DNA of 64,000 bases from an uncultured Thermotogae bacterium. Its GTDB lineage: Bacteria > Bipolaricaulota > Bipolaricaulia > RBG-16-55-9. The notes below the pieces were generated by a model. The model saw only the letters and a program-made list of their open reading frames with translations, was not told the origin of the DNA and searched no databases. The translations under genes and the position numbers were made by a program. Positions 10,397-13,755 of the stretch are shown here, in pieces; the first letter of the stretch is position 1, and each line of letters opens with the position of its first letter. Where the stretch lies: positions 3,744-67,743 of the forward strand of contig CAZMNF010000004.1 in NCBI GenBank assembly GCA_964567595.1. Direction: 5' to 3'.

Positions 10397-11479
10397 GTGT
10401 CAACTCGCCTCGACCGCATCGCCCGACGGCTGCGCCACCGCGTTGCCGAGGCCGACGATCCGACCGCGGAGGGGTCCGAATCCGACGTAGCGTTCGGGAT
10501 GCCGGGTGTCGACGCCTCGTCGTTTCGGCGCACCATGGGGCTCAAAGGCGAGCTGCAACGGACGTTCGACGGGCGGTCCCTCTCCGAACTCTACGCCGCA
10601 GCGGAGTTGGACCACGACTACGGCGCCTGCCTGGAGATACGCCACGAGGTTCCCATCCGTCCCTCTTGGCCCGACCCGGCCCAGTGTCGAGAGCAACTGG
10701 CCGGCACGATGCGCCTGCTCCACGGCATCGGGCCGCGTGTCGAGGCCGCGTTGCAACAGTCCGGTTACGCGTCGGTCGCCGACCTCGTGGCGCACCCGCG
10801 TTGGGGACCCGAAGCCGAGCGCGTGCTCAGCCGCATTCAGTCCGGGCAGCTATCGGACGTACACGCGTTAGTTCGACGGTGGTTTCCCGTGTCTCACGCC
10901 CTGAACCTCGGGCTGATCGGCTTCGCGAGCCCCGATGATCTTGTCTTTTTCGACATCGAAAGCCTTGGTCTGTTCGGACGCCCCATTGTGTTGATCGGCA
11001 TGGCCCATTTCCATGAAGATTGGTTGGACGTTCGGCAGCTGCTCGTCCGCGACATCACCGAGGAACTGCCGGCGTTGGCGATCGCGGCCGACCGGCTCGG
11101 CACGGAGCCCGTCCTGGTGACCTACAACGGACGCGCGTTCGACGCCAACATGCTGCGCGAGCGGCTCGACTACTACGGTTTCTTTACCGATCTGGAGCCG
11201 GTCCACTTCGACCTGCTTCCGCACGCACGTCGACACTTCCAGCGCGCTGTTCCGGATGCCCGGTTGGAGACGGTTGAACGACGATTGGGGCGTTCGCGAG
11301 AGATGGACCTGCCCAGCGCGCTGGTTCCCGACTTCTACAACACGTACCTCGAAACCGACAATATCGGCCCCTTGGTGCCCATCTTGGAACACAACAAGCA
11401 CGACGTCGTGTCGTTGGCCAGGTTGCTGAAGCGGCTGCTGTCCGACCATGGGCTGGGCCCGAACGGAAAGGACAGCTGA
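10397..11479 (+). CDS. RNase H-like (DnaQ-fold) exonuclease, YprB/MrfB-like
   Basis: GTG start 6 nt after GGAGGGA. The DEDD-like motifs are FFDIESLGL (Exo I), VTYNGRAFD (Exo II) and HNKHDVVS (Exo III). It sits immediately upstream of the DUF1998 helicase. Confidence 0.65.
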   Translation: MSTRLDRIARRLRHRVAEADDPTAEGSESDVAFGMPGVDASSFRRTMGLKGELQRTFDGRSLSELYAAAELDHDYGACLEIRHEVPIRPSWPDPAQCREQLAGTMRLLHGIGPRVEAALQQSGYASVADLVAHPRWGPEAERVLSRIQSGQLSDVHALVRRWFPVSHALNLGLIGFASPDDLVFFDIESLGLFGRPIVLIGMAHFHEDWLDVRQLLVRDITEELPALAIAADRLGTEPVLVTYNGRAFDANMLRERLDYYGFFTDLEPVHFDLLPHARRHFQRAVPDARLETVERRLGRSREMDLPSALVPDFYNTYLETDNIGPLVPILEHNKHDVVSLARLLKRLLSDHGLGPNGKDS

Positions 11480-11493
11480 GGCAGTCAGACGCT

Positions 11494-13755
11494 ATGACCG
11501 CGGATCCCCATCGCCAGGCCCCACCCGTGGCCTCGTTCGTCGAGGAACTTCGAGCGACCCGTGCGTCGTCGATCGCCCACGTCGAGCGATTGCCGGGCCG
11601 CGAAGCCCAGTTCGGCCACCTGGACCCGCCGCTGGCCGAATCGTTGAGCTCGTTCCTCGACGACGGCGGCCTGCGGCTCTACACCCATCAAGCCGACACG
11701 ATCGAGCGGATCCGCAAAGGCCTCCACATCATGGTGACGACTCCCACCGCGTCCGGGAAGACGCTCGGCTTCAACCTGGCCGTGCTGGAAGGGCTGCTCG
11801 CCGATCCCCAGGCGACGGCGTTGTATCTCTACCCGCTCAAGGCGTTGACGCAAGATCAACAGGCCACGCTCGAGGACATGGCTGAATCGCTGGATGCCTC
11901 GTTAGAGCCCCACATCTACGACGGCGACACGCCGCAAGGCCGACGTGCCCGCATTCGTGAGCGCTCCCGCATCGTGCTGACGAACCCGCACGCCCTGCAC
12001 CAATACCTGCCCTGGCACCACAAGTGGCGCCGGTTTTTCAAGAACCTCCGCTACGTCGTGATCGACGAGGCCCATGCCTATCGGGGCGTGTTCGGCGCCA
12101 ACGTGGCGTTGCTGATCCGTCGGCTGCGGCGCATTGCGGCCCGATTCGGTGCCGAGCCGCAGTTCATCCTCTCGTCGGCGACGATGGCCAATCCCCGGGA
12201 GCACGGGCGCAATCTGTTGGGCGTCGACGACGTCGAGGTGATCGCCGACAACGGCGCGCCCGCGGGCGAGAGGACGATGGTCTTCTGGAACACGCTCGGT
12301 CGTCCCGGCTATTCCGCCCACCGGCAGACGAGCGACCTCCTCGCCCAATGCGTCGCATCGGGCTATCAGACGTTGTGTTTCACGGCCTCGCGCCGCATGG
12401 CTGAGCTCATCGCCCGCTGGACCCAAGAGCAGACGGGGCTCGACGGGGCGATCACGGCCTACCGAGCGGGGTACCCCCCTGCGGAACGCCGCGCCATCGA
12501 GCGTGCCCTCAAAAACGGAGAACTGCGCGGTGTGGCGTCCACCAACGCGCTGGAGCTCGGCATCGACATCGGCAGCCTCGACGCCGTTCTCATCGCGGGG
12601 TTTCCGGGGACGATCCTGTCAACATGGCAGATGGCGGGCCGCGCCGGCCGCGGCACGCAAGCCTCGCTCGTGGCGCTGCTCGGCTTTGAGAACCCGCTCG
12701 ATCAGTACTACATGACCCACCCGGACGTCTTCTTCGCCAAGCCGCACGAGCACGCCGTCGCTGACCCCCAAAATCCCCATGTCCTGTTGGGCCACGTCAT
12801 GTGTGCGGCGGCCGAGCTGCCGCTGTCGACCGAGCGAGATTCCGCGTTCTTCGGCGAGGGGTTCCCCGGGGCCATGAAGGCCCTGGAACGCCAGAAGCTC
12901 GTGCAGGGGACGCCGCTCGGCCGCGTCTATCGCGGCACATCGCGGCCCGTGGAGTCCGTCGCGCTGGAGCACCTCAGCGAGCGCGCGGTCCACGTCATCG
13001 CCGACGGCGAGTTGTTGGAGACCCTGGAGCTGCGCCGAGCGTGTGAGGAGGCCCATCCGGGGGCGGTCTTTCTCCACCGCGGCGACACCTACGTCATCGA
13101 GTCGCTAGCGTTGGACGCCGGCACGGCCCACGCCTCGCGACAGGATGTCGACTACTACACCGACACGCTGCGACGGACGGACCTGGCGATCCGACGCGAG
13201 CTCGATCGCTGGACGCGCGACTGGGGGACGCTGCACGTCGGCGAGGTCCAAGCCAGCGAGCAGGTGGTCGGCTACCGAACGCGGCAGTACGATCGAACGC
13301 TCGGCCTGCACGGTCTGGATCTGCCCGAACAGACGTTCGAGACGGTGGCGCTGTGGGTCACGCTGCCTGACGGATTGCGCCAACAGGTGGAAGCTGGCGG
13401 CGGCGATTGGGCCGGCGGACTCCACGCCGCCGAGCACGCGCTCATCGCCATGACCCCCGTCTACGCCATGTGCGATCGCTGGGACATCGGCGGGCTGTCA
13501 ACCCCTCTGCACCCCGACACGGGCGCAAGCACCGTCTTCATCTACGACGGCCATCCGGGCGGCGTGGGCATCTCGGAAAAGACGGCCGATCTGTTCCGCG
13601 AGCTGGCGCAGACAACCTACGAGCTCGTGCGAGACTGTGGCTGCGACGAGGGATGCCCCTCGTGCATCTATTCGCCCAAGTGCGGCAACAACAACGACAC
13701 GCTCGACAAAGCGGCCGCGCTCGTCGTGCTGCGGGCGCTCGCCGGGCAGGACTGA
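11494..13755 (+). CDS. DEAD/DEAH-box helicase with C-terminal DUF1998 zinc domain (MrfA/YprA-like)
   Basis: 753 aa. It has Walker A TPTASGKT, a DEAH box VVIDEAH, a helicase-C motif QMAGRAGRG, and a C-terminal [20 protein letters not shown] four-Cys cluster typical of DUF1998. Confidence 0.8.
   Translation: [753 protein letters not shown]

Follow-up and report, generated by a model that had tools for sequence, protein, structure and literature searches.

In Bacillus subtilis, the helicase MrfA (YprA) and the nuclease MrfB (YprB) interact, are epistatic to one another and act independently of UvrABC (10.1101/426304, PMC11194089). MrfA is a 3'-5' translocase and helicase on single-stranded DNA (ssDNA) (Roske 2021, PMC7797055); its relative SftH is a DNA-dependent translocase and helicase of the same 3'-5' polarity (Yakovleva & Shuman 2012, PMC3424565), and MrfB is a Mg2+-dependent 3'-5' DNA exonuclease of the DEDDh type (PMC11194089). 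The MrfAB route was discovered recently; it repairs DNA without recourse to nucleotide excision repair, and its means of finding lesions have yet to be explained. Here we describe a pair of genes of this kind in a 64,000-nucleotide stretch of DNA (the window) from a metagenome-assembled genome of Candidatus Bipolaricaulia, in which a nuclease gene is followed by a helicase gene. Judging from its sequence, we put the probability that this locus is a helicase-exonuclease DNA repair operon of the MrfAB (YprAB) type, belonging to a sub-lineage that we call class A, at about 0.78. The kind of system is itself already known, being of the MrfAB type; what appears to be new relative to the literature is the class A sub-lineage (nuclease gene first, an N-terminal domain with a helix-hairpin-helix (HhH) motif, no tetratricopeptide repeat (TPR) domain), together with its own helicase clade and its wide occurrence in methanogens. 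We found no paper describing the nuclease-first variant in the literature on YprB and on DUF1998 with archaea, nor in the supplements of Bell et al. (10.1101/2025.09.15.676423).

The initial annotation of the window had read positions 10397 to 13755 as a 360-residue nuclease followed by a helicase of about 750 residues, in a genome of high GC content, and had assigned the two proteins to MrfB and MrfA. GC is 0.60-0.69 across the window, and both open reading frames (ORFs) are present, the helicase with 753 residues. All of the motifs quoted at the time (FFDIE, YNGRAFD and the end of the helicase) occur in the translations, and the Pfam families that had been named for a check, PF13482, DEAD, Helicase_C and PF09369, were all found. 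The matches of both proteins exceed the gathering thresholds and are therefore far beyond chance.

The helicase matches PF00270 DEAD (E = 2.4e-31), PF00271 Helicase_C (E = 1.1e-14), PF22982 WHD_HRQ1 and PF09369 MZB (formerly DUF1998), the last over its whole profile (positions 1-80). Its motifs are intact: TASGKT at residue 85 (GKT at 88-90), DEAH at 191-194, SAT at 228-230 and QMAGRAGR at 379. Four cysteines with the spacing C-x-C-x3-C-x2-C (C715, C717, C721 and C724; window 13636-13665) align with the CPCHDGCPSC motif of B. subtilis MrfA, and a fifth, C730 (CGNNN at 730), lies in a motif that is found in other class A helicases too. Among all PDB sequences, the best match is B. subtilis YprA/MrfA (6ZNP, E = 2.4e-138); residues 27-726 are collinear with MrfA 21-731, zinc site included, with no long insertions. 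The features by which Burby & Simmons (10.1101/426304) recognize MrfA homologues, a DExH core, a C-terminal MZB domain at the spacing typical of the family and four cysteines, are all found in this protein. NCBIfam TIGR03817 (actinobacterial helicase/secretion-neighbourhood DEAH-box helicase) matches it over the full length with 765.4 bits (E = 6e-230), which is below the model's cut-off of 874.1 bits; therefore the window helicase is not an equivalog. This model was presumably built on SftH-type actinobacterial sequences.

The nuclease matches PF13482 RNase_H_2 with E = 1.1e-29 and carries FFDIE at 189, YNGRAFD at 248 and HNKHD at 337 (365-residue numbering). Its only meaningful match among PDB sequences is the catalytic core of MrfB, 8UN9 (E = 1.7e-15, 33% identity over 190 residues). 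We modelled the protein with AlphaFold2 from 31 homologues, obtaining a predicted local distance difference test score (pLDDT) of 87 and a predicted template modelling score (pTM) of 0.85. The top Foldseek match of this model in the PDB is again MrfB (8un9_A, E = 1.5e-7, TM(target) 0.65), and the next neighbours are archaeal PolB proofreading domains and DnaQ domains, the pattern that has been described for MrfB itself too (Manthei 2024, PMC11194089). In the alignment to 8UN9, MrfB residues D107, E109, L113, D172, H258 and D262 correspond to D186, E188, L192, D249, H332 and D336 of the window nuclease (360-residue numbering). These six positions, five catalytic residues and the Leu wedge L192, are invariant in the 31-sequence alignment. 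Because the catalytic residues are kept, the protein is an MrfB homologue in the sense of Burby & Simmons (10.1101/426304). With the collinear MrfA match and the MrfB core as best match, the YprA/YprB assignment of the initial annotation held up for both proteins.

We fetched 80 genomic loci of nuclease relatives, of at least 529 candidates, and recorded for each the length before the DxE motif, the length after H-x3-D and the position of any MrfA-like helicase within flanks of up to 8 kb. The nuclease homologues form two groups, one of about 350 residues matching the window protein from end to end and one of about 410-470 residues matching in the exonuclease half alone, the latter frequently with a TPR Pfam match. 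Class A nucleases, including the window protein, have 137-242 residues before DxE, about 16-29 residues after H-x3-D and no TPR. Class B nucleases have about 95-136 residues before DxE and 150-200 residues after H-x3-D, which is the canonical build of MrfB. The initial annotation had named conserved adjacency in related genomes in advance as the test of its proposal; for class A, the helicase gene directly follows the nuclease gene on the same strand, with a gap of about 0-110 bp, at 26 of the 40 evaluable loci, and it is upstream at five, all from Methanobrevibacter or Methanobacteriaceae. At class B loci it is upstream in 16, downstream in none and not within the flank in five. Gene order is associated with nuclease class at p = 1.4e-8 (Fisher's test on loci that are not phylogenetically independent). 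Beyond the 26 class A loci, a downstream helicase was also found in L081-L083.

Class A loci are taxonomically widespread. The bacterial ones come from Bipolaricaulia, Fraserbacteria, Latescibacterota, Actinomycetota, WOR-3, Thermotogae, Bacteroidetes, Spirochaetia and a spore-forming Firmicute, and the archaeal ones from Methanoregulaceae, Methanocellaceae, Methanolinea, Methanoculleus and Methanocorpusculum. The locus nearest to the window (L001) has a nuclease 84% identical and a helicase 91% identical to those described here. We built a neighbour-joining tree of 45 helicases, drawn from loci that had been picked via the nuclease. All 200 of its 200 bootstraps placed the helicases beside class A nucleases in one clade, apart from B. 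subtilis MrfA and the class B helicases. TIGR03817 scores are 765-794 bits for class A helicases, 685 for B. subtilis MrfA and 661 for one class B helicase. As far as these sequences tell, helicases and their partner nucleases co-diverge. The reversed gene order relative to B. subtilis, already remarked on in the initial annotation, is real, and because order tracks both nuclease architecture and helicase clade, we read it as the signature of a distinct conserved sub-lineage rather than as a local inversion. The two MrfB-associated clades that are coloured in the tree of Bell et al. (10.1101/2025.09.15.676423) may be classes A and B.

Several individual loci depart from the common arrangement. 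A three-gene, helicase-first form occurs in Methanobrevibacter (L033:4803-8963; also L035, L036, L040, L026, L042 and L020), where a helicase of about 910-940 residues with a C-terminal extension of about 170 residues is followed by a conserved 99-residue ORF and then by the class A nuclease. The 99-residue ORF has no Pfam match; the extension looks TPR-like by eye and has no Pfam TPR match at E <= 1e-3. Class A nucleases with no helicase in the flank were seen in L009, L010, L012, L015, L023 and L028 (Methanobacterium/Methanobacteriaceae) and in L004 (Bipolaricaulia). The one in L012 is flanked by genes for a ParA/MinD-type ATPase and a response regulator; we considered the ATPase, which is upstream of the nuclease in L012 and L083, as a possible part of the module and rejected it, as it does not recur. 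An intermediate was found in Latescibacterota (L069:7638-10864, CP070631.1), with a 297-residue nuclease ORF, about 115 residues before DxE, no TPR and the helicase downstream; this helicase branches basally in class A and shares 45% identity with B. subtilis MrfA versus 38% with the window helicase. In L082:9058-11096 (GCA_017880035.1, a 1.2-Mb contig), the helicase after the class A nuclease was called as fragments of 307, 218 and 155 residues. Since the neighbouring dnaK and secA are also split, these fragments suggest assembly frameshifts and not real pseudogenes.

Ahead of its exonuclease core, the window nuclease is modelled with a conserved helix, a low-confidence linker (residues 21-34) and a family-specific domain that reaches a pLDDT of 90.6 when modelled alone. 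A HMMER scan of 1.84 billion (1.84e9) representative proteins with this N-domain gave 114 matches at E <= 1e-3. Because nearly all of these are proteins of 300-390 residues with the domain at the N-terminus, it is apparently confined to this nuclease family. Among the 31 homologues, HhH-type Pfam matches within the domain were to DNA_pol_lambd_f (11 of 31), HHH_5 (3), Cdd1 (3) and HHH_3 (1). HhH motifs bind DNA, and the modelled domain may serve, in place of the TPR scaffold, to bind duplex DNA non-specifically. The flexibly tethered N-terminal helix is a candidate helicase-docking element, the analogy being the AlphaFold-Multimer model of MrfA-MrfB (PMC11194089).

The nuclease ORF ends at 11479 and has two possible starts, TTG at 10382 and GTG at 10397. 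We prefer the GTG as the likely start because GGAGG lies 8 nt upstream of it and because a 360-residue protein identical to this reading is present in an NCBI-derived collection (P0001). The helicase gene starts with ATG at 11494 on the same strand, leaving an intergenic gap of 14 bp. Upstream of the nuclease gene is a sigma-70-like promoter candidate (TTGTGA-18 nt-TATACT); a scan of positions 9000-15000 found three promoter-like sites against 0.5 expected from shuffles, using a consensus that may not be that of Bipolaricaulia. No terminator-like site was found between the two genes in the same interval. The short gap, the promoter-like site before the first gene and the uninterrupted junction support, from sequence, a two-gene operon.

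The spacer of the promoter candidate holds a GC-rich palindrome, TCGCGATCGCGCGG, with the core GCGATCGC (window 10355-10368). This may be a chance occurrence or an operator, perhaps one bound by the ribbon-helix-helix (RHH) protein encoded nearby.

A number of observations weigh against the MrfAB reading. Class A members are known from genes and models alone, and we infer for them the enzymatic activities, the formation of a complex, the lesion, and what the HhH domain and the N-terminal helix do. The window helicase does not group with B. subtilis MrfA and is only 36% identical to it (class B helicases, 42-56%). The nuclease has no TPR Pfam match, with about 24 residues after H-x3-D, where TPR-type homologues have 150-200. 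Pairing is not obligatory: nine of the 40 evaluable class A loci, mostly from Methanobacterium but including L004, have no MrfA-like helicase in the flank. Distant homologues of the B. subtilis proteins, from Pseudomonas aeruginosa, failed to complement, and adaptation to other uses has been suggested (10.1101/426304). The HhH motif is a further point. For the window's own nuclease no HhH-type Pfam match passed the threshold, and a Foldseek search of the isolated N-domain against the PDB gave nothing significant (best E = 1.5), its short, non-significant local matches being to HhH-bearing parts of X- and Y-family polymerases. Because the fold search is not significant, the HhH call draws on the Pfam matches of a minority of homologues, and we hold it with moderate confidence.

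If the locus is of the MrfAB type, its most likely mechanism can be sketched, because the characterized relatives MrfA, SftH and MrfB behave in this way. The helicase would be a monomeric-type superfamily 2 (SF2) motor of the MrfA/SftH/Hrq1 family that loads on ssDNA, translocates 3'->5' and unwinds duplex, its OB-CON-MZB 'canopy' clamping the strand. The nuclease, with its Leu wedge, would be a 3'->5' DNA exonuclease of the two-metal DEDDh type, and the two proteins would most likely form a complex. The helicase would load at a nick, or at a 3' tail or end, near a bulky lesion and peel off the damaged strand, which the tethered exonuclease would degrade 3'-5'; a polymerase and a ligase would then fill and seal the gap without any need for UvrABC. 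The class A N-domain with its HhH motif would hold duplex DNA non-specifically and the N-terminal helix would dock on the helicase. Mitomycin C specifically is an unlikely lesion in anaerobic Bipolaricaulia and methanogens.

The initial annotation had left it undecided whether the pair acts in repair or in defence, and this question now leans clearly to repair or housekeeping on the evidence of PADLOC, architecture and context. Bell et al. (10.1101/2025.09.15.676423) divide the YprA family into a repair/housekeeping branch, comprising 'YprA only' and MrfB-associated helicases, and a defence branch, whose members have BrxA-like inserts, extra zinc modules, and fused or adjacent PLD, Vsr or PD-(D/E)xK nucleases and methyltransferases. 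YprA-family/DUF1998 helicases are core parts of DISARM, Dpd, Druantia and ARMADA (10.1101/2025.09.15.676423), and an RHH/RelB-like gene lies near the window pair, so one might picture a minimal anti-phage or anti-plasmid system akin to DISARM, Druantia or ARMADA in which the exonuclease degrades invading DNA as the helicase unwinds it. The helicase does match PADLOC models (BrxHI, SngC, DruE, DpdJ/F and DrmA), but in the generic SF2 core only (residues ~40-410): the DrmA models cover residues 186-408 (E = 8e-15 and 3e-13), the DruE models cover short core stretches, and the DrmB models do not match. No PADLOC model matched the nuclease, and the PADLOC check as a whole lent no support to a defence assignment. 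At 753 residues and collinear with MrfA, the helicase is without BrxA-like insert, extra zinc modules or C-terminal nuclease fusion. No integrase, restriction-modification, methyltransferase, PLD nuclease or other defence gene is adjacent in the window or in the neighbourhoods of relatives that we examined; the surrounding genes encode ribosomal proteins, chaperones, FtsY and a tRNA synthetase, relatives show synteny with the locus, and MrfB-associated helicases fall on the repair branch (10.1101/2025.09.15.676423). We consider a defence role very improbable.

The main rival is a broader role in DNA processing, in which helicase and nuclease act on something other than bulky adducts, such as 3'-end resection, the clearance of flaps, stalled forks or R-loops, or recombination intermediates, with the HhH domain directing the pair to branched or duplex DNA. 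Even in B. subtilis, what makes MrfAB specific for its lesions has no explanation, MrfA has no preference for mitomycin-damaged DNA (PMC7797055), and the failure of distant homologues to complement (10.1101/426304) points the same way, as do the different accessory domain and separate helicase clade of class A and its anaerobic hosts, which are unlikely to meet mitomycin C. However, the genetics of the family, both B. subtilis MrfAB and yeast Hrq1 with mitomycin C and cisplatin, point to tolerance of adducts and crosslinks, and no sequence feature discriminates among these DNA transactions; on balance we judge the broader role unlikely. Still less credible, and close to negligible in our view, is action on RNA, where a DEAD/DEAH RNA helicase and a ribonuclease of the RNase-H superfamily might, for instance, serve RNA decay or remove R-loops. 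The DEAD/Helicase_C and RNase_H superfamilies do include RNA enzymes, and there are weak NCBIfam matches to RNA helicases, but these have E = 1e-6 to 1e-3 versus 6e-230 for TIGR03817, the specific relatives MrfA, SftH and MrfB are DNA enzymes, and the fold neighbours of the nuclease are proofreading domains of DNA polymerases. Finally, two functionally unrelated genes might be neighbours by chance, as the class A nucleases without a nearby helicase could suggest. This is effectively refuted by same-strand, short-gap adjacency at no fewer than 26 loci from phyla of both Bacteria and Archaea, by an order that tracks architecture (class A: downstream at 26 loci, upstream at 5; class B: downstream at 0, upstream at 16) and by a helicase tree that mirrors nuclease class.

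A repair operon of the MrfAB type is thus the reading that we prefer, and under it the window locus would be an ordinary chromosomal repair operon rather than a new defence system. Class A and canonical MrfAB offer a natural comparison for working out which parts recognize DNA and which recognize the partner protein. The existence of class A argues that the role of the family is general genome maintenance and not a specific answer to mitomycin-producing streptomycetes. For annotation, the comparison suggests simple rules for telling a YprA helicase of the repair type from its relatives in defence systems: it is short and collinear, its neighbour is a DEDDh nuclease, and it lacks a methyltransferase or PLD partner. 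A bolder proposal, which we offer tentatively and regard as rather doubtful, is that class A ('MrfBA') is an ancient module apart from MrfAB, common to methanogens and to deep-branching bacteria such as Bipolaricaulia, with its own substrate logic, the exonuclease being directed by an HhH domain and not by a TPR scaffold. If so, these anaerobes could rely on it as a main way, independent of UvrABC, to remove bulky or crosslink lesions or to process 3' ends, and MrfAB as a countermeasure to a soil antibiotic would be one specialization of a much broader helicase-exonuclease repair system.

Table 1. Features of the nuclease-helicase locus and its divergent neighbours, in window coordinates
Feature	Position	Strand	Basis
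Nuclease gene (MrfB-like DEDDh 3'-5' exonuclease, class A; activity predicted)	10397..11479	+	360 aa, stop codon within coordinates
Helicase gene (MrfA/YprA/SftH-family SF2 DNA helicase; activity predicted)	11494..13755	+	753 aa, stop codon within coordinates
Sigma-70-like promoter candidate, 5' of nuclease gene	10346..10375	+	Consensus match alone
Shine-Dalgarno GGAGG of nuclease	10384..10388	+	Sequence reading; 8 nt 5' of GTG start
Conserved N-terminal helix, nuclease aa 2-19, consensus LERIARRLRxRV	10400..10453	+	AlphaFold2 model and alignment
Family-specific N-terminal domain, nuclease aa 35-180	10499..10936	+	AlphaFold2 model: helix, beta-hairpin, helical bundle
HhH motif (moderate confidence), nuclease aa ~94-121	10676-10759	+	Invariant G110, G-I/V-G-P hairpin flanked by helices
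RNase_H_2/DnaQ-like exonuclease domain, nuclease aa 183-347	10943..11437	+	Pfam, residue mapping, fold match
RecA1/DEAD domain, helicase aa 64-234	11683..12195	+	Pfam and motifs I, II, III
RecA2/Helicase_C domain, helicase aa 283-386	12340..12651	+	Pfam and motif VI at aa 379
Hrq1-type winged-helix domain, helicase aa 424-464	12763..12885	+	PF22982, E = 4.1e-10
MZB/DUF1998 Zn-binding domain, helicase aa 646-725	13429..13668	+	PF09369, E = 2.8e-24; cysteine positions
Divergent 317-aa hypothetical, N-terminal hydrophobic segment	9343-10296	-	ORF list
RHH gene, 77 aa	9034-9267	-	RHH and RelB-like matches below cut-offs

For context we compared the window with a relative at 71% identity (L081). 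Upstream, L081 has the same order as the window, with rpsF-ssb-rpsR, a small gene and a 315-residue hypothetical on the opposite strand, and after the pair both have two convergent hypotheticals, a VWA protein, a BTAD/TPR regulator, FtsY and ArgRS. The counterpart of the rpsF-ssb-rpsR block in the window includes a ribosomal protein S18-like ORF (6963-7181), and the regulator downstream of the module is a 776-residue BTAD/TPR (SARP-like) protein (17256-19586). In the interval from S18 to the module, the window encodes a membrane protein of the Na/Ca-exchanger family (7484-8827) and L081 encodes TerC and GroES/GroEL. Distant class A loci lie after hrcA-grpE-dnaK-dnaJ, or among ABC-transporter, DeoC and sporulation genes; across them, the only conserved part is the pair itself.

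The initial annotation had pointed to a divergent hypothetical gene and an RHH gene beside the module. Both exist as described, but they are lineage-specific neighbours that show no link to it. Along with the convergent genes of 378 and 265 residues, we rejected them as parts of the module, having found them in close Bipolaricaulia and Fraserbacteria relatives only. In L001:7501-7779, the counterpart of the 317-residue hypothetical matches its C-terminal ~85 residues only, in two reading frames, and appears from this sequence to be degraded or strongly diverged; this fits dispensability to the module. The helicase stop TGA (13753-13755) directly abuts the stop of the convergent 378-residue gene (13756-14892, minus strand), with 0 intergenic bases and no space for a terminator. 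The 378-residue protein has a zinc-metalloprotease-like motif, HEFGHALGL, and only a weak match to an M6 domain.

Among the described systems close to the pair are defence helicases. DISARM DrmA/DrmB, Druantia DruE, ARMADA and Dpd DpdJ share with the window helicase the YprA-family SF2 core and the DUF1998/MZB module. However, DISARM has its helicase and its OB-CON-DUF1998 module in separate adjacent genes, whereas the window has them fused in one 753-residue protein, and a DISARM operon includes a PLD nuclease and a methyltransferase, neither of which domains occurs in the window neighbours. The helicases of Druantia and ARMADA (10.1101/2025.09.15.676423) far exceed the window helicase in size and carry BrxA-like inserts and fused nucleases, both of which it lacks. 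TALON and other defence-branch YprA helicases are likewise large and set apart by features that it does not have, namely a BrxA-like insert that follows RecA1, zinc-module inserts within the OB region and a nuclease fused at the C-terminus. The yeast RecQ4-like helicase Hrq1 has the same Hrq1-type winged helix (PF22982) and MZB domain, but by description it is eukaryotic, has no operon partner and is reportedly oligomeric. The Hrq1 family has been implicated in tolerance to mitomycin C and cisplatin (10.1101/426304, PMC7797055, PMC3424565).

The mycobacterial helicases are a further comparison. Mycobacterium smegmatis SftH and its M. tuberculosis counterpart Rv3649 have the same SF2 and DUF1998 architecture, and the cysteines C736/738/742/745 of SftH have the same C-x-C-x3-C-x2-C spacing as C715/717/721/724 of the window helicase (PMC3424565). 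In contrast to SftH, the window helicase is encoded in tight coupling with an exonuclease gene. We know of no partner nuclease for SftH-type genes, which belong to the 'YprA only' group of Bell et al.

Closest among solved structures is B. subtilis MrfA-MrfB (10.1101/426304, PMC7797055, PMC11194089). The differences are consistent with a separate sub-lineage: in the window the nuclease gene comes first, the nuclease is without the C-terminal TPR and has about 180 residues before DxE, including the HhH-containing domain, versus about 106 in MrfB, and the helicase belongs to a separate clade with an extra conserved cysteine. Class A is hosted by Bipolaricaulia and methanogens, not by soil Firmicutes, and is known from its genes alone. 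Nevertheless, both systems are operons of an SF2 DExH helicase and a DEDDh RNase_H_2 exonuclease, both helicases have the winged helix, OB-CON and MZB/DUF1998 Cys4 modules, and in both nucleases a flexibly tethered N-terminal segment precedes the nuclease core.

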